Positions 21,430-43,019 of a stretch of DNA of 64,000 nt are shown here, in pieces. The DNA is taken from NCBI GenBank assembly GCA_016933025.1, contig JAFGBT010000006.1, forward strand, positions 155,078-219,077, given 5' to 3'. The translations under genes were made by a program, and so were the position numbers. Below the pieces are notes generated by a model. It was not told the DNA's origin. It saw only the letters and a program-made list of their open reading frames with translations, and searched no databases. Source of the stretch: Spirochaetota bacterium (lineage in GTDB: Bacteria > Spirochaetota > UBA4802 > UBA5550). Every line of letters starts with the position of its first letter. Position 1 is the first letter of the stretch.

Positions 21430-22587
21430 CTATACGTCGTAGCACCCGATCTTCCTCGATATGACAATCCGCTGGACTTCCGAGGTGCCCTCGCCGATGG
21501 TGAGAAGCTTGTAGTCGCGAAAGAAGCGCTCGATATTGTATTCCTTCATCAGGCCGTAGCCGCCGTGGAGCTGCACCGCCTCGTCGACCACGCAGCCCAT
21601 CACCTCAGAGCAGTAGAGCTTGGCCATGGCAGCCTCCTTGCCGAAGGGCCTCCCGGTATCCTTGAGCTTGCAGGCCTTGTAAAGGAGATTGCGCGCGGCC
21701 TCGATTTCCGTGGCCATGTCGGCCAGTTTGAAGGCGTTCACCTGAAACGTGGAGATCGGCTTGCCGAACTGCTTGCGCTCCTTCGCGTACTTCATCGCCA
21801 GCTCGTACGCGCCCTGGGCCCCGCCGAGCCCCATGGCAGCAATTGCCAGCCTGCCGTTGTCCAGGGTCTGAAGCATCTGGTGAAACCCCTCGCCCCGCCT
21901 TCCGAGAAGGTTCTCCTCCGGGACCCGGCAGTCGTCGAAGTAGAGCTCGCCGGTGTCAGAGGCGCGCCACATCATCTTTCCGGTCATCTTTTTCTGCGCG
22001 AAGCCCTTCGTCCCGTTCGGCACCAGGATGCAGGAGACCTCCTTCTTGCCGTCCGGCTTGGTCCCGGTGATGGACTGCACCGTGCAGACGCCCGCCATCC
22101 TGCTGGTCGAGTTTGTGATGAATATTTTGGAGCCGTTAATGACCCACTCGCCGCTCTCGAGTTTCGCGTTCGTTTTGCTCGCGCCCGCGTCCGAGCCTGC
22201 CTCCGGCTCGGTGAGGCCGAAGGAGGCCAGGATCTCTCCCCTGCAGAGCCGCGGGAGCCACTCCTCCCTCTGCTTCTCGTTCCCGTAATAGTAGATTGGC
22301 CCGATGCCGAGGGAATTGCCGGCCGCCACCGTGGCGCCGTGGGAACCGTCTATCCGGCATATCTCCTCAACGGCGACGCAGTAGGAGAGATAGTCCATGC
22401 CGGCGCCGCCCCACTTCTCCGGGACGTATATGCCGAAAAGGCCCATAGACGCCATCTTCTCCGTTATCTCGCAGGAGAACTCCTCCTTTTCGTCGAGCTC
22501 CCGCGCCTTCGGGCCGATCTCCTTCTCCGCAAACTCGCGCACGTTGTAGCGGAGCATCTTCTGCTCGTCGTTAAGCCAGAAGTCCAT
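21430..22587 (-). CDS. acyl-CoA dehydrogenase (catalytic Glu present: IGEGTSEVQ)
   Basis: Full ACAD architecture, 385 aa; C-terminal YEGT-type motif. Confidence 0.9.
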   Translation of the reverse strand: MDFWLNDEQKMLRYNVREFAEKEIGPKARELDEKEEFSCEITEKMASMGLFGIYVPEKWGGAGMDYLSYCVAVEEICRIDGSHGATVAAGNSLGIGPIYYYGNEKQREEWLPRLCRGEILASFGLTEPEAGSDAGASKTNAKLESGEWVINGSKIFITNSTSRMAGVCTVQSITGTKPDGKKEVSCILVPNGTKGFAQKKMTGKMMWRASDTGELYFDDCRVPEENLLGRRGEGFHQMLQTLDNGRLAIAAMGLGGAQGAYELAMKYAKERKQFGKPISTFQVNAFKLADMATEIEAARNLLYKACKLKDTGRPFGKEAAMAKLYCSEVMGCVVDEAVQLHGGYGLMKEYNIERFFRDYKLLTIGEGTSEVQRIVISRKIGCYDV

Positions 22588-22610
22588 GGTTGTCCTCCAT
22601 TGTTACGGCA

Positions 22611-22715
22611 TTCTTGACAATCCCCCTAAATGGGGCCGCCCCAAAAGTCTCCTGCGACGCCCCCCCAACCCCCCGGAGGGGGGCTTGTGAGACAGCCCCG
22701 TTGGGGGGCGGGACG
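22611..22715. repeat. G/C-tract modular repeat copy R3 (inverted orientation relative to R1)
   Basis: The reverse complement contains GGCTGTCTCACAAGCCCCCCTCCGGGGGGTTGGGGGGGCG, matching the start and second module of R1. Confidence 0.55.
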
Positions 22716-22725
22716 TCGGGCCTCA

Positions 22726-23316
22726 CTAGAAAGAAAACCCCTTCGGCAGCTGATCTGCCTCCGTCCCATCGGGCACCCATGCCAGGTCGAGAATGGTATA
22801 GGTGGGATCCAATGTTTGGAAGATGGGGACCACACGCATGCCCATTTTCGGCTCGCCGACCGAGAGGTAGCTCATCAGGATGGTGCAGACGCCGTCGAAT
22901 TCTATGTTGATAAACTTAATCGGCTTATCAAGAATATTAAAAGCGCCCGACCGCTCGCACACCATGAAGGTGTGGACCTTCGCGGTCTTCTTCGCGATGT
23001 TCGTCATGTCTATCGGCGTCATCTTCGCCAGGCAGTCCGGGCAGTGGATGCGGAACGGCTGGTAGATGGACCCTTTCGTCTCGCATTTCGGGTTGTCGCA
23101 ACGCGTCGCCATCAACCTGCCCTGGCTCAGGGACTCGAAGAAGAGCGCCTCACCGCCGTACGAATGCATATACGTCATATCGCGCGGGTTCGTCACTCCC
23201 ATCAGCTTCCAGGCGTCATCCGCGTTCCGGATCGGGGTATTTGGAGTAAAATGATGGAAGTCTCCCTTTATCTTGTACTGATTGTTTTTAACGTGCACCT
23301 GTCCTATCATACTCAT
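22726..23316 (-). CDS. DUF35 family protein (rubredoxin-like Zn ribbon plus OB-fold), thiolase/aldolase partner
   Basis: Zn ribbon RCDNPKCETKG...HCPDC followed by an OB-fold region; immediately downstream of a thiolase-like gene. Confidence 0.75.
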   Translation of the reverse strand: MSMIGQVHVKNNQYKIKGDFHHFTPNTPIRNADDAWKLMGVTNPRDMTYMHSYGGEALFFESLSQGRLMATRCDNPKCETKGSIYQPFRIHCPDCLAKMTPIDMTNIAKKTAKVHTFMVCERSGAFNILDKPIKFINIEFDGVCTILMSYLSVGEPKMGMRVVPIFQTLDPTYTILDLAWVPDGTEADQLPKGFSF

Positions 23317-23327
23317 GGCCCATCCTC

Positions 23328-24764
23328 CTACGCGTCCTTCTTAATGAGATTTTCGGGGTTCATCAATATCGTCGCCGTCACGTGCGAGCCGACGCCGGCA
23401 TGGCTGATTGCAAGACCGCGCTTTGCGCCCTTGACCTGAAGGTCCGTCCAGTCAGCGGGCTTCTGGCGGCCGAACGCCTTCCATCTCTTCTCGTCGCCGT
23501 GGACCTCCGCCCAGCGGTTCCAGAGATGGCACGCAATCTCGAACACCTGCATGATGCCGGTCGCGCCGACCGAGTGCATGCAGCCGATCAGTCCGCCGGA
23601 GATGTTTGACGGAAGCTTGCCCGGCTTGCCGGTTTTCGGGCTGGTGTGATAGCAGTCTCCTGACTCAACATAGTCGCGGCCGCAGCCGTAGGGCCGCAGC
23701 CCGATGTCCTCGTAGGTCTGTACGTCACTGATGGTGAAGGCGTCGTGCAGCTCGATGACGTCAAGGTCCTCGGTCGGATCCTTGATGCCGACCTGATTAT
23801 AGGCGTAGTACGCCGCCATACGGGCGGCCAGGAACCCGGTGAATCCCGGATAGCGCTCGCCGCCGGGGAATTTCTTGCCGAGGTCCTTGTACTGATCCTT
23901 GGTCTCGTTCGGCAGGAGCGGTATCTCCATGTCGCGCCGGTCCGCCGGCCGCAACGTGTGAGAACCCGCCGTCACCCATATCCGCAGCGGCTTGTGGGGA
24001 GCGTTCTTCGCGAGCTTCATCGCCGTCTCCTCATCGCAGAGAATTCCACACGAAGCGCCGACGCTCATCAGGCAGCAATCCAGAGCGCGAAGCGGGTGCG
24101 CCACCACCGGAGAGTTGAGCACGTCTTCAACCGTTATCTTCATCGGCCCGTGCGCGTAGGGATTCATGCGCGCGTAGCCGTGGTGTTTCACGGATATCTC
24201 CGCCAGGGTTCTCCGGAACGAGTCCTCCTCCTTGCCGAAGACCTTCCAGTACTTCTGCGCCATAACGGCATAGTAGCCCGTGTAAATATGGCCCAGCGGG
24301 GATTCCCAGTCCTTGTCGGCCGCGCATGATATGAGGAAGTTGCCCTCGTCCGTGGGGACCTCGTCCATCCGTTCCCAGCCCATGCAGAGCACGCAGTCGG
24401 AATAGCCGGATGCCACGGCCTTAACGCCCTCCCAGAGTGTTGTGCCGCCGGTCGCGCCGCCTGTTTTAACGCCGCAGTTGCCCAGCGGGTCGAGCCCGAG
24501 CCGGTCATGGATGACCGCCTCGCCGAGGAGCTGGTCGCCGAAATGGTCGGCAAAATGACCGTAGTAACAGGTGTGGATGTAACTCTTGAGCTCCGCCGGG
24601 GTCATGTCGATCATCTCCGCCGCCTGCGTGAGTGCATCGATGCAGAGCTCCTCCGTCCTTTTGCCCGGGAAGGCACGATCGAACTTCGACTGCCCCGCGG
24701 TCACCAGATAGACCGGCCGCATCAATTTAGGTATTGATAGTTGTCTGTCGCTGAATGTTATCAT
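23328..24764 (-). CDS. SCP2-type thiolase-like protein lacking the nucleophilic Cys (Ltp2-like retro-aldolase candidate)
   Basis: Thiolase fold (KTGGATGG...VASGYSDCVLCMGWERM; C-terminal ISGGLIGCMHSVGATG). Gly aligns with the Cys of paralog 30361-31518. Start uncertain (24764 or 24722). Confidence 0.75.
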   Translation of the reverse strand: MITFSDRQLSIPKLMRPVYLVTAGQSKFDRAFPGKRTEELCIDALTQAAEMIDMTPAELKSYIHTCYYGHFADHFGDQLLGEAVIHDRLGLDPLGNCGVKTGGATGGTTLWEGVKAVASGYSDCVLCMGWERMDEVPTDEGNFLISCAADKDWESPLGHIYTGYYAVMAQKYWKVFGKEEDSFRRTLAEISVKHHGYARMNPYAHGPMKITVEDVLNSPVVAHPLRALDCCLMSVGASCGILCDEETAMKLAKNAPHKPLRIWVTAGSHTLRPADRRDMEIPLLPNETKDQYKDLGKKFPGGERYPGFTGFLAARMAAYYAYNQVGIKDPTEDLDVIELHDAFTISDVQTYEDIGLRPYGCGRDYVESGDCYHTSPKTGKPGKLPSNISGGLIGCMHSVGATGIMQVFEIACHLWNRWAEVHGDEKRWKAFGRQKPADWTDLQVKGAKRGLAISHAGVGSHVTATILMNPENLIKKDA

Positions 24765-24854: not shown

Positions 24855-25241
24855 CTATACTTCCACCTCCGCCTCGACCTTCTGGAGCACCTCGACGCCG
24901 GTCTGCCTGGTGACTTTCAGGTCGACCTTTGCCCTGTTGCCCTGTATGTCTGACACGGCGCCCTCTATCGATATCGTGTCCTCGAGCATCACCGGCGCGC
25001 TGAACCGGCACCTGATCTTCTTGAGCTTGCCCGGATCGCCCGCCCAGTCGGTGACGGTCTTTGCCGCAAACGCGAGGGTGCAGAGACCCTGTAAAATTGC
25101 TCCGCCCAGGCCGACCATCTTGCCGAAATCCGGGTCGATGTGGATCGGGTTGAAATCTCCTGACGCGCCGGCATAATATATGGCCCGGTATTTATCGACT
25201 TTCTCGCTGCCGCTGAATGTCTCTCCTTTTTCGATAGCCAT
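24855..25241 (-). CDS. MaoC-like (R)-specific enoyl-CoA hydratase, C-terminal hot-dog subunit
   Basis: Motif GDFNPIHID; start at the internal ATG with AGGAGG RBS. Confidence 0.75.
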   Translation of the reverse strand: MAIEKGETFSGSEKVDKYRAIYYAGASGDFNPIHIDPDFGKMVGLGGAILQGLCTLAFAAKTVTDWAGDPGKLKKIRCRFSAPVMLEDTISIEGAVSDIQGNRAKVDLKVTRQTGVEVLQKVEAEVEV

Positions 25242-25252
25242 GGGCGTTCCTC

Positions 25253-25690
25253 CTACTTTCTCACCACAAAAGTGTATAACCCCCGGCACACGCTCCTGCC
25301 GTGCTGGTTCTTCGAAATCCCCTCGATGGTTATAACATCGAGCTTCTCCTTGTTCCTGATATCGCTGATTTTCGCCGTCGTGGTGATGGCATCGCCGGCC
25401 TTCACGACCTCGAAGAATTCGAACTCCTGCTCGCCGTGGACCAGCATCGCCATGTTCAGGTTAAGCTCGCTGTCCAAGAATATTGGCTCGATCAGATACG
25501 CGCCGAACACGACCGCGAAGGTCGGCGGAGCAATGATCGCGCCATATTTCGATTTTTTCGCAAACGCCTCGTCCATGAAATGGGGATCCTGGTTCTTGAT
25601 GGCCTTGGCGTACTCCTTGATCTTGTCCTTGCTCACATCGTAGGTGTACGACGGATACTCCTTGCCGATGAACTTCGTGTCTATTGCCAT
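25253..25690 (-). CDS. MaoC-like dehydratase N-terminal-type hot-dog subunit
   Basis: Hot-dog fold with HGEQEFEF; pairs with the adjacent C-terminal-type subunit. Confidence 0.7.
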   Translation of the reverse strand: MAIDTKFIGKEYPSYTYDVSKDKIKEYAKAIKNQDPHFMDEAFAKKSKYGAIIAPPTFAVVFGAYLIEPIFLDSELNLNMAMLVHGEQEFEFFEVVKAGDAITTTAKISDIRNKEKLDVITIEGISKNQHGRSVCRGLYTFVVRK

Positions 25691-25710: not shown

Positions 25711-25750
25711 CCCCCCCTCTCACCGTGGGAGAGGGGGTTGGGGGGGTGAA
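25711..25750. repeat. short G/C-tract repeat copy (CCCCCCCTCTCACCGTGGGAGAGGGGGTTGGGGGGGTG)
   Basis: Matches modules of R2 and R7. Confidence 0.4.
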
Positions 25751-25753: not shown

Positions 25754-26929
25754 TCATTTCCCTCCGTACTTCCTTATCAAGTCCTTGGCGATCAATATCC
25801 GCTGGATCTCCGACGTTCCCTCGCCGATCTCGCCAAGCTTGGCGTCGCGGTAAAGCCGCTCCACCGGGAACTCCTTGATGTACCCGTACCCGCCGTGGAC
25901 CTGGACCGCCATGCTCGAAATCTGCGTCGCCGCTTCGGAGGCCCAGACCTTGGCCACGGAGGCCAGCACGGCGGCCTCGGGGTCCTTCATCTGCTTGGCC
26001 CACGCCGCCTGATAGATGAGGAGGCGCGCCACGTCTGTCTGAATCATCATGTCCGCGATCTTGAATGAAATCTCCTGATAGCGGTTTATCGGCCTGCCGA
26101 AGGCCTTCCGCTCCTTGGAGTACTTGTTTGCCAGCTCCAGGCACTTCGCCGCGATCCCGAGGCACACGGTGGCCATGCCTATCCTGCCGTACTCGAGGGT
26201 CTGCATCGCCTGGATAAAGCCCCTCCCCACCTCGCCGAGAACGGCGCCCGCGGGCACCTCGCAATCCTCGAAGATTAGCTCTGCCGTGGGCGAGCCGCGG
26301 AAGCCCATCTTGTCGAAGGGCTTGCTCACGGAAAACCCCTTCGTGCCCTTGTCAACCAGGAAACAGGTAACGCCTGCGCCCGGCCCCTTCTCCCGGTCAT
26401 TGTAAGCGAAGACCAGTGCCACGTCCGCGATCGTCGCGTTGGTTATGAAGGTCTTGGTGCCATTGATTACCCACCGGTCCCCCTTCTTCACGGCGTTCGT
26501 CTTGATGGAGGCCGCGTCGGTGCCGGCCTCCGGCTCGGTTAGACCGAAACAACCTAAGATCTCGCCCTTGATGATGCCGGGTATATACTTCTTTTTCTGG
26601 GCCTCGCTGCCGAAGAACCGAAGCGGCATGCCGAAGAGGCCTGACGAGGCCCCGCAGGAAAGGAAAGTCGAGGCGCACGCCTTGGCAACCTCCTCCCCCG
26701 CTATCGCCTGGCTGATCAGATCAAGGTCGGTGCCGCCGTACGCCTCCTCGTGGCCCATGCCGAGATAGCCGATATCCGCGAGCTTTCTGATGTTCTCCTT
26801 GATGAGTTTGTCAACGTCATCATGGGACGCCTGGTCGAGCATCTGGGCGCGCGGCTCGATCTCCTTCACGCAGAATTTTACAAAATTTTCCTTTATTGAT
26901 AACTGCTCGGATGTCAGATCGTAATTCAT
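25754..26929 (-). CDS. acyl-CoA dehydrogenase (catalytic Glu present: IGEGTSEIQ)
   Basis: Full ACAD architecture, 391 aa. Confidence 0.9.
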   Translation of the reverse strand: MNYDLTSEQLSIKENFVKFCVKEIEPRAQMLDQASHDDVDKLIKENIRKLADIGYLGMGHEEAYGGTDLDLISQAIAGEEVAKACASTFLSCGASSGLFGMPLRFFGSEAQKKKYIPGIIKGEILGCFGLTEPEAGTDAASIKTNAVKKGDRWVINGTKTFITNATIADVALVFAYNDREKGPGAGVTCFLVDKGTKGFSVSKPFDKMGFRGSPTAELIFEDCEVPAGAVLGEVGRGFIQAMQTLEYGRIGMATVCLGIAAKCLELANKYSKERKAFGRPINRYQEISFKIADMMIQTDVARLLIYQAAWAKQMKDPEAAVLASVAKVWASEAATQISSMAVQVHGGYGYIKEFPVERLYRDAKLGEIGEGTSEIQRILIAKDLIRKYGGK

Positions 26930-26975: not shown

Positions 26976-28127
26976 TTAGAACATGCTCAGAATCCGGGAT
27001 ATGATAAAGCGCTGGATTTCCGACGTGCCGCCGCCTATCTGCGCCAGCTTGGCGTCGCGGAGGAACCGCTCGATCGGATAATCGTGGATGTAGCCGTATC
27101 CGCCGAAGACCTGGGTCGCCTCGCTGGCGGCCTTCACGCCCCAGTCGCCGACCAGCGCCTTGGCGATGGAGGTATGCATGTGGTTAAGGGGCTTCCCTGA
27201 ATCTTTGTCGAAAGCGACACGATAGACCACCATCTTCGCCGCTTCCTTTATGATCCTGAGGTCCGCCAGCTTGTGCTGGATCGCCTGAAACGAGCCGATC
27301 GGCTTGTCGAACTGCACCCGCTCCTGCGCGTACTTCGTGCACTCCTCTATCGCGAACTGCATTCCGCCAACGAAGGGGGAGAGGAGCGAGCTCCGGTCCC
27401 AGGAGAGCGTCTCATGGGCGTACTCCATCCCCTTCCCGACCTCGCCGATCAGGTTCTCCTCCGGGACCTCGCAGTTGTCGAGGAACACCTCGGAAGTCGA
27501 CGAGGCCCGTACGCCCATTTTGTGAAACGGCTTGCCCGTGGAAAAGCCTGGGAACCCGCGCTCCACGATGAAGGCGGCGATGCCGTTATGCTTCAGCTTT
27601 TTATCGATCGTCGCGTAGACCACGCATATGTTGCAGACCGGCGCGTTGGTTATGAAGGTCTTGGAGCCGTTGAGCATCCAGCGGTCGCCCTTCTTGACCG
27701 CTGTGGTCGACATTGCGGCTGCGTCGGAACCCGACCCGGGCTCGGTGAGACCCATGCAGCCTATCCACTCGCCGCTTGCAAGCTTGGGCACGTATTTCTT
27801 TCTCTGAGAGTCGTTGCCCTGCTTGTACAATGTGTCGGTGCAGAGATAGGTGTGTGCGCCCAGCGCCAGCAGGTGCCCCTGGTCGACGCCGGCGTGGCCG
27901 AGGGCCTCCCCCGCGAGGCAGCAGGTGACGACATCCGCACCAGAGCCGCCGAGCTCTTCAGGGAACGGAAGCCCCAGAAGCCCCATCTCCCCCAGTTTGC
28001 CCCAAACTTCAGGTGAAAACTCCGACTTGAGATCGGCCTCCTCGACGAGCGGAACGATCTCCTTCTTCGCGTACCGGTACACCGTCTCTCTGAACATCAA
28101 TTGCTCTTCAGTAAACCCAAACTCCAT
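26976..28127 (-). CDS. acyl-CoA dehydrogenase-like subunit with Gly replacing the catalytic Glu (IGGGTSEIQ)
   Basis: ACAD fold; motif substitution read directly; start at the internal ATG with AGGAGG RBS. Confidence 0.85.
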   Translation of the reverse strand: MEFGFTEEQLMFRETVYRYAKKEIVPLVEEADLKSEFSPEVWGKLGEMGLLGLPFPEELGGSGADVVTCCLAGEALGHAGVDQGHLLALGAHTYLCTDTLYKQGNDSQRKKYVPKLASGEWIGCMGLTEPGSGSDAAAMSTTAVKKGDRWMLNGSKTFITNAPVCNICVVYATIDKKLKHNGIAAFIVERGFPGFSTGKPFHKMGVRASSTSEVFLDNCEVPEENLIGEVGKGMEYAHETLSWDRSSLLSPFVGGMQFAIEECTKYAQERVQFDKPIGSFQAIQHKLADLRIIKEAAKMVVYRVAFDKDSGKPLNHMHTSIAKALVGDWGVKAASEATQVFGGYGYIHDYPIERFLRDAKLAQIGGGTSEIQRFIISRILSMF

Positions 28128-28184
28128 GCGCTCCTCCTTTGTAATACGGTCCGGGACGGACAACGCGCTCCGTCACCAACCCGG

Positions 28185-29751: not shown

Positions 29752-30216
29752 TCAGTCTATGACCCTGAAAAACTCTATGTCCCGGATGCTCCCCTTCGGG
29801 TTCATTGAAAAGACCGGCTCGACACGGGCGCCGATCCTGATCTTCTTCTCGTCCTCAACGCTGATATAATGCTGGAAAAGCGTGTCCGCTCCGTCCAGCC
29901 TGATGAAGCCGTATCCGTAGGGCACGGGCTTCTGATGACCCGTCTCCGGATCAATGAACGCGAACCGGAGGATCGTAAAGGTGCCGATGACGCCTCCCGG
30001 TCCCACCTCGACCCAGTCGTTCATCTCCACAAAGCAGTCGCCGCAGACGCCGCGCGGGGGAATGTAGACCTTTTTGCATTTCGGGCACCTGATACCCATG
30101 AACCGCCGGTTGTCCCGTATCTCGGTGAAAAATTTGCTCCCGTGCATCCCGATTGAATAGGTGAAGGGCTGCACCGCGTCGCCTGACTCAATAATGATAT
30201 GATTGCTGTCTGCCAT
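29752..30216 (-). CDS. DUF35 family protein (Zn ribbon plus OB-fold)
   Basis: CPKC...CGDC ribbon; OB-fold C-terminal half; GGAGG RBS at the trimmed start. Confidence 0.8.
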   Translation of the reverse strand: MADSNHIIIESGDAVQPFTYSIGMHGSKFFTEIRDNRRFMGIRCPKCKKVYIPPRGVCGDCFVEMNDWVEVGPGGVIGTFTILRFAFIDPETGHQKPVPYGYGFIRLDGADTLFQHYISVEDEKKIRIGARVEPVFSMNPKGSIRDIEFFRVID

Positions 30217-30240
30217 GATATTTCCTCCACTTTGCTCCAA

Positions 30241-35105: not shown

Positions 35106-36947
35106 TTATTTCTTTTCGAATAAACCATCCGCTGCCTCTTTCGCGTACATCTCTTCGATGAGGTCCCTGTACTTCTCCTGTACCACTTTGCGCTTGACCT
35201 TCAGCGACGGGGTAAGCTCGCCGCCGTTCTGCGAAAACTCGGTCTTGATGATCCTGAACTGCTTTATTCCCTCGTACCTGGCGAGGTGCGAGTTACGCTC
35301 ATCCACGTGCCTCTGCACAACCGATAGAAACTTCTGATCGTCCAGGAGGCCGGCCGGATCCCCGAAGGCGATGCCTTCCGCCTTCGCGATTCGCGCGGCC
35401 TCCTCGATGTTGATGTTGCACAGGCCGGTCAGGTACTTCCTCTTCTCGCCGATGACGATAAACTGCGTGAACAGCGGGTCCGATTTGAAGAGATTCTCGA
35501 TCTTCTGGGGCGCGACGTTCTTCCCGCCCGAGGTGATAATCAGGTCCTTCTTGCGGTCGGTGATGAGAAGGTTCCCCTCGTCATCGAACATGCCGATATC
35601 GCCCGACATGAAATAGCCGTCGGGGGTGAATGCGTCTTTCGTCTCGTCCGGAAGCTTCCAGTAGCCCCTGATGACATTCCCTCCCTTGATTAAAATCTCC
35701 CCGTCGTCCGCAATTTTGATATCCTCTCCCGGAATCGGCTTACCGGTGGTCCCGATCCGGTAATCGGCGAGGGACTGCATGGTGGCCGGCGCGGTCGTCT
35801 CGGTCATGCCGTACCCCTGGATGACGGTGATGCCGGCGGCGTTGAAGAAGCGGATGATCTCCTCGGCCGTGGGAGCGCCGGACGCGGTCATCCAGGTGAC
35901 CCGCCCTCCCAGCTTGTCCTGGAGCTTCTTGAAAATCATGGCGTAGGCGATCCTGTATTTCAGCTTCAGCCAGAATGGTATGCGCCTGTGCATCTCCCGG
36001 CGCCTGCTGATCCTGCTGCCGACCTTCTGTCCCCAGTAGAACACTCTCTGCTTGAAGGCGGACTGCTCCTGCACCTGCGCCATGATCTTCTGGTAGACCT
36101 TCTCGCAGACGCGGGGCACGGCCAGGATCATGGTGGGCCGCCTCTCCTCGAAGTCGGCCAGCAGGGTGTCGATGCTCTCGGCGTACGAGGCCGTGATGCC
36201 GCAGTACATGCCGTAGAAGTGCCCTGCGATCCGCTCGAACACGTGTGAGAGCGGGAGGAAGGGAACGGTGCAGTCCGTATCCGAGGCAAAATGCGGCCGG
36301 ATCGCGTCGAGCGACTGGACCACCCAGAAAATGTTCCCATGACTGATCATCGCGCCCTTGGGGAGTCCGGTCGTCCCAGAGGTATAGACCAGGGTCGCCA
36401 GGTCGTCCGGACCAACATCGGCCGCCAGCTTCTCGAACAGGTTCCGGTCCGCCTCCTGTTGTTTGCGTCCCAGCTCCATCAGCTCATTGAAGGAAATCAC
36501 CTTCGGGTTCGACCTGTCCGCGTCGCCATCCTCCATGACGACAATCTTCTCCAGTTTCGGGCATTTATCCGCTATCTCGAGTATCTTGGTCAGCTGGTTC
36601 TTATTTTCAGATATGATTATTCTTGATTCCGAATTGTTGAGGATGTATTCTATCTCCTCGGCCACCAGCGTCGGATATACCGGTATGAGGACGCCGCCGA
36701 TTCCCATGATCCCCATGTCGGAATACAGCCACTCGAGGCGGTTCTCGGAGAGAAGAGCCACCATGTCCCCCTTCCGTATGCCGAGATAATACAGGCCGAG
36801 GCCGGTCGCGCGCGCCCGTTCATAATATTCGTTCCAGGAAGCGCCGTGCCAAACGCCTTTCAGTTTTTTCTCTATCGCAAGTCTGTCGCCGTATTTCTCA
36901 ACGCGATTGCGGAAAACATCATTGACGGTCCTTTCTGCTGATTCCAC
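35106..36947 (-). CDS. long-chain-fatty-acid--CoA ligase (AMP-binding)
   Basis: AMP-binding motif TSGTTGLPKG; 613 aa, FadD-like. Confidence 0.85.
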   Translation of the reverse strand: MESAERTVNDVFRNRVEKYGDRLAIEKKLKGVWHGASWNEYYERARATGLGLYYLGIRKGDMVALLSENRLEWLYSDMGIMGIGGVLIPVYPTLVAEEIEYILNNSESRIIISENKNQLTKILEIADKCPKLEKIVVMEDGDADRSNPKVISFNELMELGRKQQEADRNLFEKLAADVGPDDLATLVYTSGTTGLPKGAMISHGNIFWVVQSLDAIRPHFASDTDCTVPFLPLSHVFERIAGHFYGMYCGITASYAESIDTLLADFEERRPTMILAVPRVCEKVYQKIMAQVQEQSAFKQRVFYWGQKVGSRISRRREMHRRIPFWLKLKYRIAYAMIFKKLQDKLGGRVTWMTASGAPTAEEIIRFFNAAGITVIQGYGMTETTAPATMQSLADYRIGTTGKPIPGEDIKIADDGEILIKGGNVIRGYWKLPDETKDAFTPDGYFMSGDIGMFDDEGNLLITDRKKDLIITSGGKNVAPQKIENLFKSDPLFTQFIVIGEKRKYLTGLCNINIEEAARIAKAEGIAFGDPAGLLDDQKFLSVVQRHVDERNSHLARYEGIKQFRIIKTEFSQNGGELTPSLKVKRKVVQEKYRDLIEEMYAKEAADGLFEKK

Positions 36948-37064: not shown

Positions 37065-37844
37065 TTATCTCCCCTTGAAACTCGGCCTCCGCTTCTCTAA
37101 AAACGCGGCAATCCCCTCTTTCTTGTCCTCGCTCTCCGCAAGCCCTCCGAAGAGCCGGCTCTCCAGCTTCAACCCGTCCGCCAGTGGCATCTTCCCGCCG
37201 ACCAGGACAGCCTCGATGACGGCGCTCACGGCGAGCCGGCCCTTGAACGAAAGGTCCTTCGCGAACTTCATGGCCTCCTCCATGAGGGCGGCATGGGGGA
37301 CGACGCGGTTGACCAGCCCGATCCTCTCGCACTCGGACGCCGGTATGAATTTACCGGTGAGCATGATCTCAAGCGCCCGCGCCGGCCCCAGGAGCCGCGC
37401 CGCCCGCTGGGTTCCGCCGAACGCCGGCATGATGCCGAGCAGGATCTCCGGCAGGCCCATCTGCGCCTGGTCGCCGATGAACCGCATGTGGCATGCCATG
37501 GCAAGCTCGGTGCCGCCCCCCAGACAGAGGCCGTTGATCGCGGCGATTACAGGCTTTCGAAGGTTTTCTATCAGATTTATAATCCCCTGGGCCTCTGACG
37601 TGAGCGCCTCGCCCTTCTCGCGCGTGTCGACTTCCCGCACCTTGTTGACGTCGGCCCCGACGATAAATGTCGGGCCCTCGCCGGTGATTACCACGACCTT
37701 CACCGAATCGTCGGCGGCGATCTTCTTCATCGAGCTTTCAAGCTGGCGCATGGTCTCCTCATCCAGCGCGTTCATCGGGGGGTTGTTGATCTTCAGAAGG
37801 GCAACGCCCCGCTCGTTGACTTCGTAATAGCATTTGTCAGCCAT
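37065..37844 (-). CDS. enoyl-CoA hydratase/isomerase (crotonase family)
   Basis: AAINGLCLGGGTELAMACHMRF; paralog of the 3049-3825 gene. Confidence 0.85.
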   Translation of the reverse strand: MADKCYYEVNERGVALLKINNPPMNALDEETMRQLESSMKKIAADDSVKVVVITGEGPTFIVGADVNKVREVDTREKGEALTSEAQGIINLIENLRKPVIAAINGLCLGGGTELAMACHMRFIGDQAQMGLPEILLGIMPAFGGTQRAARLLGPARALEIMLTGKFIPASECERIGLVNRVVPHAALMEEAMKFAKDLSFKGRLAVSAVIEAVLVGGKMPLADGLKLESRLFGGLAESEDKKEGIAAFLEKRRPSFKGR

Positions 37845-37865: not shown

Positions 37866-37905
37866 ACCCTCACCCCTGCCCCTCTCCCACGGGGAGAGGG
37901 TACAC
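37866..37905. repeat. G/C-tract repeat copy R7 (CCCTCACCCCTGCCCCTCTCCCACGGGGAGAGGG)
   Basis: Near-identical to the middle module of R2. Confidence 0.4.
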
Positions 37906-37917: not shown

Positions 37918-39345
37918 TCATTTCTTCCTCAATCCCATGATCGCGCGGGCCTCGTCGCAGGTGGCAATCGGCCTGCCGAGACATTCGGCGACCCCGACCG
38001 CCACCTCGACCAGCTCGTAGCTGCCCTTGGCCAGCTCGCCGTTCGGCATCCTGATATTGTCCTCCAGGCCGACCCGCATGTGCCCGCCGAGGAGGCACGA
38101 CTGCATGATGCACGGAAACTCGTCGGTGCCGACGCCGCAGGTGGTGAAGTTCGCCTTCGGCGGGAGCGCGTTCATCATCGCTATGAAGGTCTCGGCCCTG
38201 AAGGCCTGGCCGCCGGCCACGCCCCAGACGAAATTGAAGTTCATCGGATCGGTGAAGAAACCCTGCTTCGAGATCAACATGGTGTTGTCGAGCCCCCCCA
38301 TGTCATAGCACTCGATCTCCGGCTTCACGCCGTTCTCCTCCATGGCCTTGCCGAAATCCTGCAGCATGGTAAAGGTGTTCTCGAACACGTAGTCGATGAA
38401 GATCTTTCCGGTCTTCCGGTCGATGATACTGAAATTCATCGTATTGGTGTTCAGAGACGCCATCTCGGGCTTGATCTCCACGATCTGGCTGATGCGCTGC
38501 TCGGCGGTCTTGCCCATGCCGACGGCCGAGCTCAGGTTCACGATCAGCTCCGGGCTCTTCTGCTTGATGGCGTCGTGGGTCGCCCGGATCCTGTCGATCT
38601 CGTGCGTCGCGAAGCCGTTGTCCATGCGCGCGTGCACGTGCACCATGGCCGCGCCCGCCTTCCAGCACTTGTGCGCCTCTTCCGCGAACTCCGCCGGCGT
38701 GTATGGGACGCTCGGGTTCTGGTTCTTCATGGTCGCCGCGCCGGTAAGGGCGGCGGTGATTATTACTGGCTTTGACATATCCGGTTTTCCTCCCCTTCGT
38801 TTTTCCTGAGTTTCAGGCTCGTCCGACGGAACCCATTGTTTACGCAACTTGCTGCGCTCGTGTACCGACAGCGTTTCAACCGCCGGCCTGAAGTGATCGA
38901 TGTCGAGAATGGTGCTCGTCGTTTTCTCGGCGAACACCGCCTCAACCTTCATCCCTATCTTGACGTCCTCTATCTTACACTCTTCGACAATATGCAAGAA
39001 GGGCGTGTCCGCGCCTTCCAGCTTGATGAGAGCGAGGACGAACGGCGCCTTTCGCGGCAGGTGCTTGTCGTCGTAGCGCACCACCGTGAAGTTCGTCACC
39101 GTTCCGCTTGAGCCCACTTCGACCCAGTTGTCCCGTATATCCGTTAAATCCTTGTCGCAGACCTGCCGCGGCGGCAGGTACACCATGCCGCAGGCCGGGC
39201 ACTTCACTCCCATTATCTTCTTCTTGTCCCGGATCGTCGTGATGAACTTGCTGCCGACGCGTCCGGCGAAATAGCTGTACGGGAGCGCCATCTTGCCTTC
39301 AATGATGTAGCTGTCTTCATATCCCTTTATTTGCTTATCTATCAT
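37918..39345 (-). CDS. fusion protein: N-terminal DUF35 (Zn ribbon/OB-fold) domain and C-terminal BKACE/DUF849 (3-keto-5-aminohexanoate cleavage enzyme-like) domain
   Basis: Single uninterrupted frame (the ORF track reports 37918-39453). N-half GVKCPACGMVYLPPRQVC plus OB-fold; C-half starts MSKPVIITAALTGA. Start chosen at ATG 39345 with TAAGGAG RBS, 11 nt after the upstream stop. Confidence 0.6.
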   Translation of the reverse strand: MIDKQIKGYEDSYIIEGKMALPYSYFAGRVGSKFITTIRDKKKIMGVKCPACGMVYLPPRQVCDKDLTDIRDNWVEVGSSGTVTNFTVVRYDDKHLPRKAPFVLALIKLEGADTPFLHIVEECKIEDVKIGMKVEAVFAEKTTSTILDIDHFRPAVETLSVHERSKLRKQWVPSDEPETQEKRRGGKPDMSKPVIITAALTGAATMKNQNPSVPYTPAEFAEEAHKCWKAGAAMVHVHARMDNGFATHEIDRIRATHDAIKQKSPELIVNLSSAVGMGKTAEQRISQIVEIKPEMASLNTNTMNFSIIDRKTGKIFIDYVFENTFTMLQDFGKAMEENGVKPEIECYDMGGLDNTMLISKQGFFTDPMNFNFVWGVAGGQAFRAETFIAMMNALPPKANFTTCGVGTDEFPCIMQSCLLGGHMRVGLEDNIRMPNGELAKGSYELVEVAVGVAECLGRPIATCDEARAIMGLRKK

Positions 39346-39356: not shown

Positions 39357-40550
39357 TTACTCGTCGATTTCGAAATATTTGATGTCCCAGATATCGCCGG
39401 CCCGTTTTTCCTCCCAGACCGGACGAACGCGCGTTCCCTTCTTCTCGTTCCATCCCATCTCGATCTTTTCAATCTGGTCCTTCCGTATAAAATGAGGGAG
39501 GGTCTCGTTGCCCTTGCATCCGTCCAGGAGAATCATGATCGACCCGTAGGGCGTCTCTCGCGCCACTCCGGTCAGCGGGTCGGGAAGAGCGTAGTAGACG
39601 ACATCCATGTACCGGACTTCTCCCTTCGGCCCGACCTCTACAAATTCAGATACGCGTACCCTGCACTCGGCGCACATCTCCCGCGGCGGGAGCTGTATGC
39701 GGCCGCACTTCGGGCACCGGTTCCCGTATATCTTTTTATCCTTCAGTCCCTTGAGGAACCTGCCCATGACCGGGCCGGTCGCGTACTTCTGGTTGACCGA
39801 GATAATCTTCTTCAACACCAGAAGCTCCTGCTCGGGTACGGCGCCGCCCATCGGGTCCTTGTATTTCTCGAACATGACCGGCCATTTCGTCTGAATGAGG
39901 TTGATATCGCCTTTGGCCGATCCCTTGCCCGCCGCCAGCAGGGTCTGCGCGTCTATCTTACCGAGGATAAAATCGACATAGTCCTTCGCGTCGTTGAATT
40001 CGAGGGTCACGGTCGGATTGCCCTCGATGGTCGTCGCAATCGTGCACTTCTTGTCCTTGACGGATACCGTCCACGTGCCGCCGTCCGGGCCGCCGAGATC
40101 GTAGGCGAACGACGCGTCCACGTCCTCCGCCTCCTCGGGCTTGAATCGCGACACGATCGTCCCGAACATGTCCTCTATGTACTCCCGGGTCGACATCTCC
40201 TTCTTCGCGATGACGAACTTGCGAAACATCCTGCCGGTCTTGCCGAACGCGCCCATGTCGCCCTCAACCTTGACCTTGCCTCCCATGAAGGCGTTCGTCG
40301 CGTCGACCTTGCCGGTGTTCACGCCGACGAAGGTCTCGCCGTCGGCGCTCATCGTCGCGACGCATCCGGTTATTCCGTCGACCCTCTCAACCGCCGCGAG
40401 CGTTCCGTTATACACGGTCACCTTCCATTTTCCTTCCCCGGCGATATCGTATCCGTACGAGGCCGTTACGCCCTGCGCGCCCTCGGGACGGAACCGTTCC
40501 TGCATGGTATTGAATATATCTTCAACTTTAATTCCCCAGTATTCTGCCAT
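39357..40550 (-). CDS. fusion protein: two tandem SCP2 sterol-carrier domains and C-terminal DUF35 domain
   Basis: Two AFMGGKVKVEGDM-type SCP2 signatures, then NRCPKCGRIQLPPREMCAECR plus OB-fold; AGGAGG RBS at the trimmed start. Confidence 0.65.
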   Translation of the reverse strand: MAEYWGIKVEDIFNTMQERFRPEGAQGVTASYGYDIAGEGKWKVTVYNGTLAAVERVDGITGCVATMSADGETFVGVNTGKVDATNAFMGGKVKVEGDMGAFGKTGRMFRKFVIAKKEMSTREYIEDMFGTIVSRFKPEEAEDVDASFAYDLGGPDGGTWTVSVKDKKCTIATTIEGNPTVTLEFNDAKDYVDFILGKIDAQTLLAAGKGSAKGDINLIQTKWPVMFEKYKDPMGGAVPEQELLVLKKIISVNQKYATGPVMGRFLKGLKDKKIYGNRCPKCGRIQLPPREMCAECRVRVSEFVEVGPKGEVRYMDVVYYALPDPLTGVARETPYGSIMILLDGCKGNETLPHFIRKDQIEKIEMGWNEKKGTRVRPVWEEKRAGDIWDIKYFEIDE

Positions 40551-40560
40551 GATTGTCCTC

Positions 40561-41760
40561 CTACCAGTTGAGTTCCTTCTCGAGCATCGTGAGCACGGTC
40601 CACATCGTGCCGCCAAAGCCCGAGGCCAGCGCGTGGTTTACCGGGGTCGGGATCTGGTGATCGCCCGCGCCGCCCCGTACCTGAAGGGCGGCCTCGGCGA
40701 CCCGTACCAGCGCAGTCGCTCCGATCGGGTTCGACGCGATGACCCCGCCCGACGGGTTGATCGGCAGCTTCCCGCCTATCATGACCTCTTTGTCCTCAAT
40801 CAGCCTGAGGTGCTCATCGCCCTTGAGATCGAAAAAGTCCCTGAGCCAATCTATGGCCCACCACGATGCGGGATCGTACATCTCGAACACGTCAAAATAA
40901 TTCAACGGGTCCTTGATGTCATTCCGTTTGAAAAGCTGTTCCGCCGCGAACTTGTGGCTCTTGGTAACGGGGAACGCCCTGTTGTATCCGAAGATGGTGA
41001 ATATCTCTTCCTTGTGGATGGCGATATGGTCCCGAACCCAAACCGGCCGCCGTGACAGCTCCTTCGCCTTTTTCTCGGAGGCGTATATGACCGCGCACGC
41101 TCCGTCCGACTGAGAGCACATCTCGATCAGCTTCAGATCGCCGACGAGCTTCGGGGACGACTTGATCAGGTCGTCGATCTGGCTGAAGTCGAGGCCGAAG
41201 GCGCGGTGCGCGTTCGGGTTAAGGCACGCGTGCTTGTCCATTATGATGCGGTATGTCAGGGAGACCCTGTTGGCCCTCTCGAGGCCGAATTCCCGCGAGA
41301 CATCGTACGCCGATGACCCGGTCAGGGCCCCCGCCTGGATCTTGCGGAACCAGAGCGGGTCCGCCATGTTGGTGATGCCGGCTGTGGTGTGCCCCTCCTG
41401 CAGTTTCTCGAAGCCGATGGCCATGACGATGTCGTACATGCCCGACGCCACCAGGTTGTCCGCGGCGCAGGATATGGTTGCGCCCGACGTGCCGCCCGTT
41501 GTGATCCTGATGCTGTCCTTGCCGTAGGCGCCTGTTCCCAGCATGTGCCACATGTCCGGCTGGTGAATCATCTCGAAGAGCTCCATATTGCCGTGAACGA
41601 CACAGTCGACGTCATTCATCGTCAGGTTCGCGTCTTGCAGCGCGAGGCTGACCGCCTCGTATATCATCTCCGGCTGGTTCACGTCCTCGCGGTGGCTCGA
41701 ATGCTTTGTCTGCCCCACGCCTATTATACCGACGTTTCTGTTCTTTTTTCTGTGTGCCAT
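40561..41760 (-). CDS. SCP2-type thiolase-like protein, subfamily A (Ala at the position of the Cys in paralog 30361)
   Basis: TTGGTSGATISCAADNLVASGMYD...IGFEKL; C-terminal GGVIASNPIGATA. Confidence 0.85.
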   Translation of the reverse strand: MAHRKKNRNVGIIGVGQTKHSSHREDVNQPEMIYEAVSLALQDANLTMNDVDCVVHGNMELFEMIHQPDMWHMLGTGAYGKDSIRITTGGTSGATISCAADNLVASGMYDIVMAIGFEKLQEGHTTAGITNMADPLWFRKIQAGALTGSSAYDVSREFGLERANRVSLTYRIIMDKHACLNPNAHRAFGLDFSQIDDLIKSSPKLVGDLKLIEMCSQSDGACAVIYASEKKAKELSRRPVWVRDHIAIHKEEIFTIFGYNRAFPVTKSHKFAAEQLFKRNDIKDPLNYFDVFEMYDPASWWAIDWLRDFFDLKGDEHLRLIEDKEVMIGGKLPINPSGGVIASNPIGATALVRVAEAALQVRGGAGDHQIPTPVNHALASGFGGTMWTVLTMLEKELNW

Positions 41761-41772
41761 TGTTCTTCCTCC

Positions 41773-42918
41773 CTAAGCTTCCATTACGATAACGGCCTGG
41801 TGCTGGCCGGCGCCGCCGGTCGCGGCCTGGGCGACGGCCCTCTTCACTCCCTTGACCTGGCGGTCGCCCGCCTGACCTGAAAGCTGATAGTAGCATTCGA
41901 TAGCCCGCGCCGCCCCCCCGAGGAGGAGCGGATTGCCGTTGAGATGGCCGCCAGACAGGTTGACATTGAACTTTTCCATACCGCCGTCATCAATCCACTT
42001 ACCGCCCTTCCCTTCATCGGCAATACCGACCCCCTCAGCCCACATCGGGAGCTGGTACGCCGCGTGATCGCTCAGCTCGAAGAGCTGGACGTCCTTTCGC
42101 GGGTCCTTGATGCCCGCCCTGGCGTAGGCCCTCTGCGCGGCTTGTTTCAGCGAGAAGTTCGAGCAAAGATCCCGGTCGCCTATGAAATACCGGTCCATGC
42201 AGCTGCCGTATCCGGTGAGCCAGACCGGTTTTTTGGTGAATTCCTTGACGCGTTCCTCGCAACAGAGGAGTATCCCGTACGCCCAGTCGGTGACCGGATA
42301 CACGTGAAGTTCGCGCAGCGGGTCCGCATACATCGGCGAATTCATCACCTCTTTCTCATCCACTTGTCTGTTCTCCCGCGCGTAGGGGTTCTTCTTAGCG
42401 TTTTTCCTGGAACGGACGACTATCTTCGCCAGGTGCTCCTCGGTAACGCCGGACTTCTCCATGTACTCCCGGGCCTGCAGGGCGTCGACGTTCTGAAAGT
42501 CCATCCCGACCGGCCGGCAGTAAAATGGATCGCAGGCGAGATTGGTCGCCATCCGCCTGCTCTCTCCCTGAGACTCCTTGCAGTGCCCCATGAAGAGTAT
42601 CACATCGTCATGGCCGCTCAGGATACAGGCCATAGCGTACCCGAGCCCGTTGATGCTCTCCTGAGCCATCTTCTCTTCGCCCCTGAAGTGGGCGCCCACG
42701 ACGTCAGTCACGCCGTTGTCTGATATGGTCCGCGCATCGAACACGTCATCGGAGCATGTTATAATGTTTCTGATACCCCTTTCCATGTCAAAGGTGACGC
42801 CGGTCTGCTCCATGATAGGCTCGAAGCACTCGAGCAGCATGTTCTGGAAGCGCATGTGCGCGTATTCCGGCTCGTTCTTGACCTGCGCCACTGCGCATAC
42901 CGCTATTCTTTTACTCAT
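41773..42918 (-). CDS. SCP2-type thiolase-like protein, subfamily B
   Basis: YAMACILSGHDDVILFMGHCKESQGES aligns with the 31530 paralog; GAGGAGG RBS. Confidence 0.85.
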   Translation of the reverse strand: MSKRIAVCAVAQVKNEPEYAHMRFQNMLLECFEPIMEQTGVTFDMERGIRNIITCSDDVFDARTISDNGVTDVVGAHFRGEEKMAQESINGLGYAMACILSGHDDVILFMGHCKESQGESRRMATNLACDPFYCRPVGMDFQNVDALQAREYMEKSGVTEEHLAKIVVRSRKNAKKNPYARENRQVDEKEVMNSPMYADPLRELHVYPVTDWAYGILLCCEERVKEFTKKPVWLTGYGSCMDRYFIGDRDLCSNFSLKQAAQRAYARAGIKDPRKDVQLFELSDHAAYQLPMWAEGVGIADEGKGGKWIDDGGMEKFNVNLSGGHLNGNPLLLGGAARAIECYYQLSGQAGDRQVKGVKRAVAQAATGGAGQHQAVIVMEA

Positions 42919-43019
42919 TACCAATCCTCCTCTCAATTCTTTTACGGCAACGGATCATGATAATACCACCTCGCATAACAGATTTGACATGGGCTTTGAT
43001 ATTGCCGCCTCGTGAATCT

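Follow-up and report, generated by a model that had tools for sequence, protein, structure and literature searches.

The stretch of DNA analysed here, 64,000 nucleotides of contig JAFGBT010000006.1 from the Spirochaetota bacterium assembly GCA_016933025.1 (hereafter the window), carries on its minus strand a 22-gene acyl-CoA island whose five thiolase-fold proteins all lack the canonical nucleophilic cysteine and which contains no hydroxyacyl-CoA dehydrogenase. A preliminary description of the window, made from its sequence, had placed 22 co-directional genes with minimal spacers in 21430–42936. According to the open reading frame (ORF) listing and Pfam scans, 21 minus-strand genes lie in that interval, and the 22nd gene of the unit is found just beyond it, at 43020–43568. 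Some longest-ORF starts are too long, and orthologue ATG starts remove the apparent gene overlaps and leave spacers of 10–15 nt. Orientation by itself is uninformative: about 33 consecutive minus-strand genes run across 19.5–52.4 kb, and thus strand alone does not delimit the unit. Its edges are set by a 282-bp spacer below the last gene and a 328-bp AT-rich spacer above the first, and the G+C content, in 2-kb windows, is 57–61% within the unit versus 51–54% in the flanks.

All genes of the island are on the minus strand and are described in the direction of transcription, with Pfam assignments unless stated otherwise. The first gene of the conserved unit encodes a PHP-domain metal phosphoesterase of 182 aa (PHP; 43020–43568; PHP and PHP_C domains). 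It is followed by the thiolase-fold proteins T1 (41773–42936; Thiolase_C_1; likely start 42918, giving 381 aa) and T2 (40561–41760), an SCP2-SCP2-DUF35 fusion (SCP2D; 39357–40550; two SCP2 domains and zf-ChsH2) and a 475-aa DUF35-BKACE fusion (DBK; 37918–39345; BKACE, OB_ChsH2_C and zf-ChsH2). Next come a crotonase-type enoyl-CoA hydratase (ECH; 37065–37844; ECH_1, 210 bits), a FadD11-like long-chain-type acyl-CoA ligase (LIG; 35106–36947; AMP-binding and AMP-binding_C_3) and the A (CTA; 34050–35054) and B (CTB; 33278–34048) subunits of a family-I CoA-transferase, both with CoA_trans. The stand-alone DUF35 protein D2 (32688–33155), which also matches DUF35 structures in the PDB, T3 (31530–32672), T4 (30361–31518) and a second stand-alone DUF35 protein, D3 (29752–30240; likely start 30216), precede an orphan PPM/PP2C-fold protein with a weak SpoIIE match (28866–29738; 279–290 aa, 279 aa from 29702) and a TetR-family regulator with a YsiA/BetI-type C-terminal domain (28185–28811). 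The distal part encodes two acyl-CoA dehydrogenases (ACADs), AD1 (26976–28163) and AD2 (25754–26929), and two hot-dog subunits that NCBIfam also places as HadA/HadB-like, the FAS1_DH/HadA-like MH1 (25253–25690) and the MaoC protein MH2 (24855–25241, with an ORF to 25289). Then follow T5 (23328–24764; 478 aa; NCBIfam NF004982, 702 bits versus a cut-off of 695), the divergent DUF35 protein D5 (22726–23316; 196 aa; no Pfam match) and a third ACAD, AD3 (21430–22587). The earlier count of three ACADs, two hot-dog subunits and five thiolase-fold proteins, with a BKACE, a CoA-transferase, a ligase, a crotonase and a TetR regulator, is borne out by Pfam, and the protein described as PP2C-like has a PPM fold with conserved metal-binding Asp residues.

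The five thiolase-fold proteins were aligned by MAFFT, together with their orthologues, against the thiolases 6esq, 7yvy and 6hsj. The nucleophilic Cys of canonical thiolases, located at the N-terminus of helix Nα3 in a C-A/S-S/T-G motif, is absent from all five, and none of T1–T5 is therefore a canonical thiolase. The position is occupied by Ile in T1 (I, L or V among the orthologues) and by Gly in T2, T3, T4 and T5, where it is invariant in 70, 45, 45 and 41 orthologues, respectively; in T3, it is an invariant EGDG motif that puts Gly there. The HDxF and GHx thiolase motifs are retained by T3 and T5 and lost from T1, T2 and T4, and the catalytic His of GHx accordingly survives in T3 and T5 only. 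T1 has SDHA and GNP in their place, without catalytic Cys or His, while T2 has YDPA, of which Y-D-P is invariant, and SNP, with TTGGT and EMYDP unchanged in its 70 orthologues. T4 carries an invariant YQPY and an Asn in place of the catalytic His (CNP). T3 reads HDAF in this window versus YDAF in 42 of its 45 orthologues and retains GHP, and T5 keeps both an invariant HDAF and the His (MHS), these motifs being invariant in its 41 orthologues.

A thiolase fold without catalytic cysteines is known from the aldolases Ltp2 and Sal, whose HDCF-equivalent motifs are YDHF and YDCY, respectively, and in which the Tyr is the catalytic base (PMC12329534). In these steroid aldolases, a backbone Gly contacts the β-hydroxyl, namely Gly89 in CtSal and its counterpart in TcLtp2 (PMC12329534), and we infer that this Gly occupies the thiolase Cys position. 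When the published HDCF correspondence is used to establish equivalence, a Tyr stands at the Ltp2/Sal catalytic-base position in T2 (Tyr295) and T4 (Tyr282), where it is invariant, and in 42 of the 45 T3 orthologues.

The second missing element is the dehydrogenase. Pfam detects no 3HCDH or short-chain dehydrogenase/reductase (SDR) gene in 21430–43568, nor do the precomputed Pfam results for the variant loci L001, L003, L136 and L138. The island thus lacks the combination of a 3-hydroxyacyl-CoA dehydrogenase and an active thiolase by which a classical fatty-acid β-oxidation operon is recognized, in agreement with the preliminary description, which had set the cluster apart from ordinary β-oxidation on other grounds. 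It had regarded the density of DUF35 domains as the anomaly. This does not stand, since the ratio of five DUF35 domains to five SCP2/archaeal-type thiolase-fold proteins is the usual 1:1 partnership, and there are five of the former because there are five of the latter, which belong to a 1:1 partner class. The real anomaly is the loss of the Cys from all five thiolase-fold proteins together with the absence of a hydroxyacyl-CoA dehydrogenase.

The DUF35 domains themselves were identified by a four-Cys Zn ribbon and an OB fold, and all five that had been listed, three stand-alone and two fused, are present. Four are found by Pfam, and the fifth, D5, only through the DUF35 structure 3irb, which it matches over both the Zn ribbon and the OB fold (E 2e-4); all four of its Zn-ribbon cysteines are conserved without exception in 39 orthologues. 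Those of the SCP2-SCP2-DUF35 protein are likewise invariant in 65 orthologues. The DUF35 domain of the BKACE fusion has three conserved cysteines (C-x2-C...C) and E, D or N at the fourth position in 68 orthologues, and it may form a three-Cys site. This ribbon recalls the atypical Cys3His site in the DUF35 domain of Shy. The BKACE domain of the same protein scores 313 bits against a PF05853 cut-off of 24.8, and all 68 orthologues retain its Zn ligands, HxH and ED, which align with those of Kce (2y7d; E 5e-50). It falls below the NCBIfam equivalog cut-offs for Kce (272 versus 382), the 3-oxoadipate enzyme (200 versus 350) and the 3,5-dioxohexanoate enzyme (181 versus 430).

The five DUF35 domains lie beside the five thiolase-fold genes and are always adjacent to them. 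Pairwise identities are 37% between T1 and T3, 42% between T2 and T4, 47% between D2 and the DUF35 domain of the BKACE fusion and 34% between D3 and the C-terminal DUF35 domain of the SCP2 protein. By these relationships, the island comprises two paralogous four-component units, one made of T1, T2, SCP2-DUF35 and DUF35-BKACE and the other of T3, T4, D2 and D3, together with a simple pair, T5/D5.

The partners fused to DUF35 vary among related clusters. In Desulfobacterales and another proteobacterial metagenome-assembled genome (MAG), the position of the BKACE fusion is held by a plain DUF35 protein (L076:10386-10913) or by a DUF35-MaoC protein (L076:3057-3956, L136:14764-15660 and L138:3226-4119). 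The SCP2 partner in the Desulfobacterales MAG L076 (L076:2-3034) is a 1010-aa protein with an AMP-ligase fused to three SCP2 domains and a DUF35 Zn ribbon, with the DUF35-MaoC gene next to it, while in L136 the BKACE is stand-alone and directly upstream of PHP. Several Desulfobacterales MAGs (L079, L081, L084 and L138) have tandem-duplicated T1-T2 modules. From these alternative fusions it follows that the T1/T2 core has repeatedly been wired, via DUF35, to hydratase, ligase and lipid-binding domains and, in this lineage, to a BKACE. The DUF35-MaoC hydratase Shy uses its DUF35 domain to dock on the aldolase Sal, and the stand-alone DUF35 protein ChsH4 has been proposed as a staple for the aldolase Atf1 (PMC10398937, PMC11321319). 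The multi-enzyme channelling machine that had been suggested from DUF35 density thereby gains independent support, the exchange of MaoC hydratase, ligase-SCP2 ×3 and BKACE on the same staple being the strongest in-silico support available for such a machine, with DUF35 as the docking element through which the enzymes would be physically associated.

The three ACADs are generic short/medium-chain types according to NCBIfam, which gives no specific name for these, the crotonase, the ligase or the transferase; the ligase reaches 381 bits for FadD11, under the cut-off, and the CoA-transferase matches the 3-oxoacid CoA-transferase A family weakly. AD1 has an invariant Gly in place of the canonical Glu, a residue that AD2 keeps. 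AD1 retains FAD-site motifs and has an invariant Asp that we take, from a by-eye alignment with the human isovaleryl-CoA dehydrogenase (IVD) sequence, to correspond to the catalytic base of that enzyme. ACADs without the Glu and with an Asp at the IVD-type position are seen for branched or long substrates. A steroid-type α2β2 ACAD formed by AD1 and AD2 was considered and not adopted: AD1 lacks the Glu but has both the FAD-site motifs and the IVD-type Asp. The hot-dog subunits make up a heteromeric R-hydratase, of which MH2 has the hydratase-2 motif YxxxxGDxNPIH, as read from the translation, and MH1 lacks it.

The distribution of the island was determined by a scan of one genome per species, which returned 80 loci, and by BLASTP comparison of the ORFs at each locus with the proteins of the window. 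All 80 are from MAGs, belonging to Spirochaetota and uncultured Leptospirales, to Syntrophaceae, Smithella and Syntrophales, to other Deltaproteobacteria and to Desulfobacterales, and the hosts come from anoxic habitats. No oxygenase gene is present in the cluster; GMC flavoenzymes are encoded nearby. The anaerobic route envisaged earlier is compatible with both gene content and habitat. The comparison of related genomes that had been called for reveals one order common to about 70 of the loci, PHP-T1-T2-SCP2D-DBK-(ECH)-LIG-(CTA-CTB)-D2-T3-T4-D3-PP2C-TetR-AD1-AD2-(MH1-MH2), and this synteny in about 70 other genomes makes the cluster non-random. D3 is kept next to T4 across loci. PHP adjoins T1 upstream in most Spirochaetota and Syntrophales loci with enough stored sequence, as well as in L136 and L139, and is absent from the Desulfobacterales versions. 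ECH is missing from the Syntrophales versions and the CoA-transferase from some Smithella-type loci, and some genomes possess a second, shorter copy with the order T1-T2-SCP2D-DBK-AD1-AD2. T5-D5(-AD3) is a separate mobile sub-module: the pair occurs together in 51 metagenome loci at varying positions, after AD2, after MH2, beside a transferase paralogue or alone, and AD3 travels with it, in the order T5-D5-AD3 in many loci.

The BKACE fusion has more than 85 cluster representatives at 69–92% identity, and proteins are 83–95% identical between Spirochaetota and Syntrophales loci, T4 being at 91–95% across phyla. This is far above what vertical descent across phyla would leave, and the island consequently moves horizontally. 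Neither the best matches of the protein searches nor the one-genome-per-species scan included a cultured host. No paper was found that joins DUF35 with BKACE, DUF35 with Smithella or Kce with Syntrophaceae; a Desulfobacteraceae proteogenomics paper makes no mention of the island proteins, and the NetSyn paper on BKACE is silent on any thiolase or DUF35 context. With every host found being a MAG, the cluster appears to be undescribed, as the preliminary description had suggested.

A 20-bp palindrome, TTGGTTGAACATCCAATCAA, lies at 43637–43656 (minus strand) inside the 328-bp spacer upstream of PHP. It has a single match in the window, against a chance expectation of 0.01, and 10-mers from it are found again upstream of PHP in related loci, in 24 of 50 distinct regions. 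The TetR gene, too, is conserved at its position. It is the probable operator of the cluster's TetR, which would bind there, and would mark the start of the regulated unit. The AT-rich spacers at 21148–21429, 43569–43896 and 44539–44687 share a promoter-like element, ATTGACA-N16/17-TGATTA or TATCAT, which may represent a local sigma-70-type promoter consensus and went undetected by a simple scan. That scan for promoters and terminators was not enriched over shuffled sequences (13 versus 7.9 and 17 versus 17.0), and no sub-operon structure is claimed for this reason.

The five copies of a G-rich repeat that had been taken to separate sub-operons did not bear scrutiny. They belong to a family of palindromic hairpins rich in C and G, CCCCTCTCC-loop-GGAGAGGGG, with four clear intergenic copies (25713–25737, 33187–33211, 33239–33263 and 37880–37900) and degenerate intergenic ones near 22630–22675 and 30330. 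A further copy of this hairpin lies beyond the cluster, at 7792–7814, and equivalent spacers carry it in only a few close Spirochaetota loci, which excludes a role as cluster-specific regulatory elements. The hairpins rather behave as a REP-type intergenic palindrome family of this lineage, not as a defining part of the island, and may stabilize mRNA segments. Perfect C/G-rich hairpins of this kind are found at 7792–7814 and 11450–11473, between flagellar genes.

Taken together, these features are read here, with a probability of about 0.45, as a TetR-controlled, horizontally spread catabolic island encoding a β-oxidation-like path for a lipophilic carboxylic acid, with non-thiolytic C–C cleavage. 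The acid would be activated by the long-chain-type ligase or the CoA-transferase, the ACADs would then desaturate the acyl-CoA, and the crotonase or the heteromeric MaoC hydratase (MH1/MH2) would add water. The resulting 3-hydroxyacyl-CoA would be split by retro-aldol cleavage in three DUF35-stapled, Cys-less units, T1+T2, T3+T4 and T5+D5. The BKACE, docked on T1/T2 via DUF35, would convert a β-keto acid and acetyl-CoA into a shortened acyl-CoA and acetoacetate, and the CoA-transferase would re-activate the acetoacetate. In the most economical version, the aldolase would act on a 3-hydroxy-3-substituted, HMG-CoA-like intermediate of the glutaryl-CoA type, and as such a cleavage would yield acetyl-CoA and a β-keto acid, it would supply exactly both substrates of the BKACE. 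Cleavage of a tertiary alcohol in a 3-substituted glutaryl-CoA has been proposed from omics data of a methanogenic limonene culture (PMC12583861). Retro-aldol chemistry would be needed only if the β-carbon could not be oxidized to a ketone or were too hindered, which suggests isoprenoid, alicyclic or sterol side-chain substrates; the substrate is thus probably a lipophilic and probably branched acid with a tertiary or otherwise hindered β-carbon derived from compounds of these types. A more far-reaching version is decidedly speculative and, as a whole, unlikely: a DUF35-stapled megacomplex of ligase, lipid-binding, hydratase, retro-aldolase and BKACE components would shorten acyl chains independently of thiolase and NAD, passing the products of HMG-CoA-like cleavage to the tethered BKACE, which would yield a shortened acyl-CoA and acetoacetate, and would constitute a general anoxic route for lipids with tertiary or quaternary carbons, among them sterol side chains, isoprenoids and alicyclic acids, in bacteria of methanogenic zones (Syntrophales and uncultured Spirochaetota).

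Several described systems share parts of this scheme. The AD1-AD2-MH1-MH2-T5-D5 segment is laid out like the Mycobacterium tuberculosis igr operon (ChsE1-ChsE2/ChsH1-ChsH2/Ltp2; TcLtp2-ChsH2DUF35, 6ok1). Common to both are adjacent ACAD genes, a heteromeric MaoC hydratase in which one subunit is catalytic and the other is not, a thiolase-fold protein that lacks the nucleophilic Cys and is paired with a DUF35 domain, which it would bind here too, a TetR-type repressor and, as proposed here, retro-aldol cleavage in place of dehydrogenase and thiolase. Unlike in igr, where DUF35 is fused to the hydratase, D5 is a separate protein; T5 has HDAF where Ltp2 has YDHF; similarity to Ltp2 is low (E 1e-11 for T5 and 2e-29 for T4); the ACADs look FAD-competent and not clearly α2β2; and the hosts are anaerobes with no steroid ring-degradation genes in view. 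The proteobacterial hydratase/aldolase pair Shy-Sal (9myr), which acts on bile-acid side chains, and the mycobacterial ChsH4-Atf1-KstR3 system resemble the island in combining a DUF35 ‘molecular staple’, whose docking would be conserved here, with a Cys-less thiolase fold. Sal has Tyr first in its HDxF-equivalent motif (YDCY), the DUF35-MaoC proteins of the sister clusters have the exact domain order of Shy, and ChsH4 parallels the stand-alone DUF35 partners. The differences are that the island has heteromeric cores (T1/T2 and T3/T4) with two distinct DUF35 partners apiece, that the motifs YDP(A/S), YQPY and YDAF lack the Cys of YDCY, that BKACE or SCP2 domains are tethered besides the hydratase and that a counterpart of the aldehyde dehydrogenase Sad is missing.

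The best sequence matches of T1–T5, with E values down to 1e-40, are in thiolase/HMG-CoA-synthase-like/DUF35 complexes, in which DUF35 bridges two thiolase-superfamily subunits and a shared CoA site serves channelling. Those complexes keep the catalytic Cys and an HMG-CoA-synthase-like subunit, whereas here the Cys is lost from all five proteins, both subunits of each pair are SCP2/archaeal-thiolase-like and the context is catabolic. BbsAB of anaerobic toluene degradation (7pxp) likewise occurs with a CoA-transferase, an ACAD and a hydratase, its cleavage enzyme being made of DUF35 (BbsA) and thiolase-fold (BbsB) subunits, but BbsB is a true thiolase with the Cys and the operon includes the dehydrogenase BbsCD, both of which are missing here. 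Known BKACE pathways, including lysine fermentation by Kce, dehydrocarnitine cleavage and the triacetate acetoacetate-lyase of anaerobic phloroglucinol degradation, have in common with the island the Zn TIM-barrel with HxH and ED, a 3-oxoacid-type CoA-transferase nearby and the logic of converting β-keto acid and acetyl-CoA into acyl-CoA and acetoacetate. They differ in that here the BKACE is fused to DUF35 within a thiolase-fold/DUF35 cluster and that no dehydrogenase in the unit makes the β-keto acid from a 3-hydroxy or 3-amino acid. Peroxisomal MFE-2/SCPx, which acts on 2-methyl-branched fatty acids and bile-acid precursors, shares the MaoC hydratase-2, SCP2 and SCP2-type thiolase fold; unlike the island, it includes an SDR dehydrogenase and a Cys-active thiolase, and SCP2 is here fused to DUF35 and not to thiolase or hydratase.

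A number of observations weigh against the retro-aldol pathway. T1 and T5 lack a Tyr where the catalytic base would sit, and the T3 of this window carries His there. T3 also has a semi-conserved Cys (40 of 45 orthologues) five residues upstream of the canonical position, which might be a shifted nucleophile. The T proteins are nearer to the archaeal/SCP2 thiolases 6esq, 7yvy and 6hsj (E ~1e-40 for T4) than to Ltp2 (2e-29) or Sal (2e-19), and with true thiolases being the closer relatives, any aldolase function would have evolved convergently. The cluster encodes neither an aldehyde dehydrogenase, as would be required for an aldehyde product, nor a carboxylase to turn a ketone into a β-keto acid. 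Outside the unit, a hydroxyacyl-CoA dehydrogenase could come in trans from the SDR genes at 46821–47666 and 62531–63343. Ligases and TetR regulators of these types also serve ordinary fatty-acid degradation, and the proposed pathway does not account for PHP and PP2C.

Some of these observations would be accommodated by ordinary β-oxidation of straight long-chain fatty acids, with archaeal/SCP2-type thiolase-DUF35 pairs working through non-canonical residues and a dehydrogenase located elsewhere. As Syntrophales and relatives of Leptospirales, the hosts belong to lineages known to use fatty acids, and the FadD11-like ligase, the YsiA-like domain of the TetR regulator, the generic short/medium-chain ACADs, the two SDR genes and the HDxF/GHP-type motifs and nearby Cys of T3 all fit this explanation. 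It is nonetheless unlikely, though it is the alternative that survives best, because the nucleophilic Cys is lost from all five proteins and its replacement Gly is invariant in four, no dehydrogenase is found inside the unit in any of the five Pfam-checked loci, and the heteromeric MaoC hydratase, the SCP2 domains and the BKACE would be without a role.

A narrower form of the retro-aldol proposal is that the island degrades the side chain of sterols, steroids or hopanoids anaerobically. The igr-like module of ACADs, MaoC heteromer, Cys-less thiolase fold and DUF35 points in this direction, as do the Shy-type DUF35-MaoC fusions in sister clusters, the sterol-carrier (SCP2) domains, a cholesterol-oxidase-like GMC enzyme at 52602–54281 and a lipocalin gene and further GMC genes nearby. 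The 64-kb window contains no steroid ring-degradation genes, however, the cholesterol-oxidase match is under the family cut-off (498 versus 850) and its link to the island is conjectural, and T1–T5 are only distantly related to Ltp2 and Sal. BKACE is not known to act in steroid pathways, nor are these host groups known to degrade steroid side chains. We consider this restriction improbable, more so than straight-chain β-oxidation.

Biosynthesis is less probable again. BKACE and aldol reactions are reversible, and DUF35-stapled units and a BKACE could in principle form C–C bonds for an unusual lipid or polyketide-like compound, an anabolic role that would be in keeping with the matches of the T proteins to 6esq and PhlC. 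Biosynthetic DUF35 complexes are known, namely the archaeal thiolase/HMG-CoA synthase/DUF35 complex and the PhlABC and MucABC acyltransferases, but the catalytic Cys kept by the acetyltransferase subunits of such complexes is absent here (PMC12960953). The island has no HMG-CoA-synthase-like subunit, reductases or carrier proteins, and its three ACADs, ligase, CoA-transferase and fatty-acid-type TetR point to catabolism. A PhlABC-type C-acyltransferase in particular is rejected, as neither the Cys of PhlC nor an HMG-CoA-synthase-like subunit is present.

BKACE enzymes can reportedly cleave β-ketohexanoate-type acids (Bastard et al. are said to have described this in 2014). That the island, which is present in several Smithella/Syntrophaceae MAGs, encodes the propionate dismutation of Smithella (two propionates to a C6 compound and then to acetate and butyrate), whose enzymes are not yet known (PMC8892533), is scarcely credible, given that it is at least as common in Spirochaetota, has a long-chain-type ligase and lipid-binding SCP2 domains, provides no mutase for the required skeleton rearrangement and would be unlikely to perform a Claisen condensation of propionyl-CoA without the catalytic Cys.

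Whatever the substrate, each kind of component has been described before, namely DUF35 staples, thiolase-fold aldolases without the Cys, BKACE and the layout resembling igr. No example was found, in the literature searched or in any cultured organism, of the heteromeric four-component units, of the DUF35-BKACE and SCP2-DUF35 fusions, of a 22-gene acyl-CoA island wholly without thiolase and dehydrogenase or of its wide spread in uncultured anaerobes. Little is understood of how methanogenic peat, sediments, aquifers and digesters mineralize branched, alicyclic and sterol-like lipids, and the organisms involved are uncultured; the occurrence in roughly 100 or more species-level lineages and the exchange between phyla suggest that the island is an ecologically important portable trait. 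If the retro-aldol proposal is true, the DUF35 ‘staple’ and the repurposing of thiolases as aldolases, two principles known until now from mevalonate synthesis in archaea, the synthesis of antibiotics and the aerobic degradation of steroids, would extend to heteromeric four-component assemblies in strict anaerobes, and the BKACE would be the first to be physically coupled to a thiolase-fold/DUF35 core. The island supplies testable parts in the form of defined genes, a candidate operator and predicted catalytic residues.

Other genes of the window deserve mention. Directly upstream of the island, 44688–47666 (minus strand) encodes a GMC oxidoreductase, a small gluconate-2-dehydrogenase-subunit-3-like protein and an SDR. 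The GMC gene, the small subunit and a CsgG-like lipoprotein gene (43897–44538) are kept at this place only in the closest Spirochaetota loci (L005–L007, L009, L029, L033 and L070, with the CsgG-like gene undetected in L070), and the GMC group might oxidize a lipid alcohol before its activation. The separate GMC flavoenzyme at 52602–54281 (plus strand) matches the NCBIfam model ‘cholesterol oxidase ChoxAB’ (NF058674) over its full length, with the sub-cut-off score of 498 bits given above; cholesterol oxidases lead its PDB matches (E 1e-23), it retains the motif regions of the catalytic His and Asn, and two ORFs without family matches follow it (54311–55320). A second acyl-CoA group at 60903–64000 (minus strand), with a Fer4-nitroreductase gene beside it, comprises an AMP-ligase, an SDR and an SCP2/archaeal-type thiolase-fold protein with HDAT and GHP motifs, the N-terminus of which is cut by the window end. 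The flanks also encode signalling proteins of the partner-switching type, namely a response regulator with a SpoIIE domain (18158–19468, plus strand), a 7TM-PAS-SpoIIE protein (47702–49519, minus strand) and a 7TMR-DISM-PAS protein with an anti-sigma-kinase-like ATPase (56180–58279, minus strand), so that the window contains, with the orphan PP2C protein of the island, three PPM-type phosphatases.

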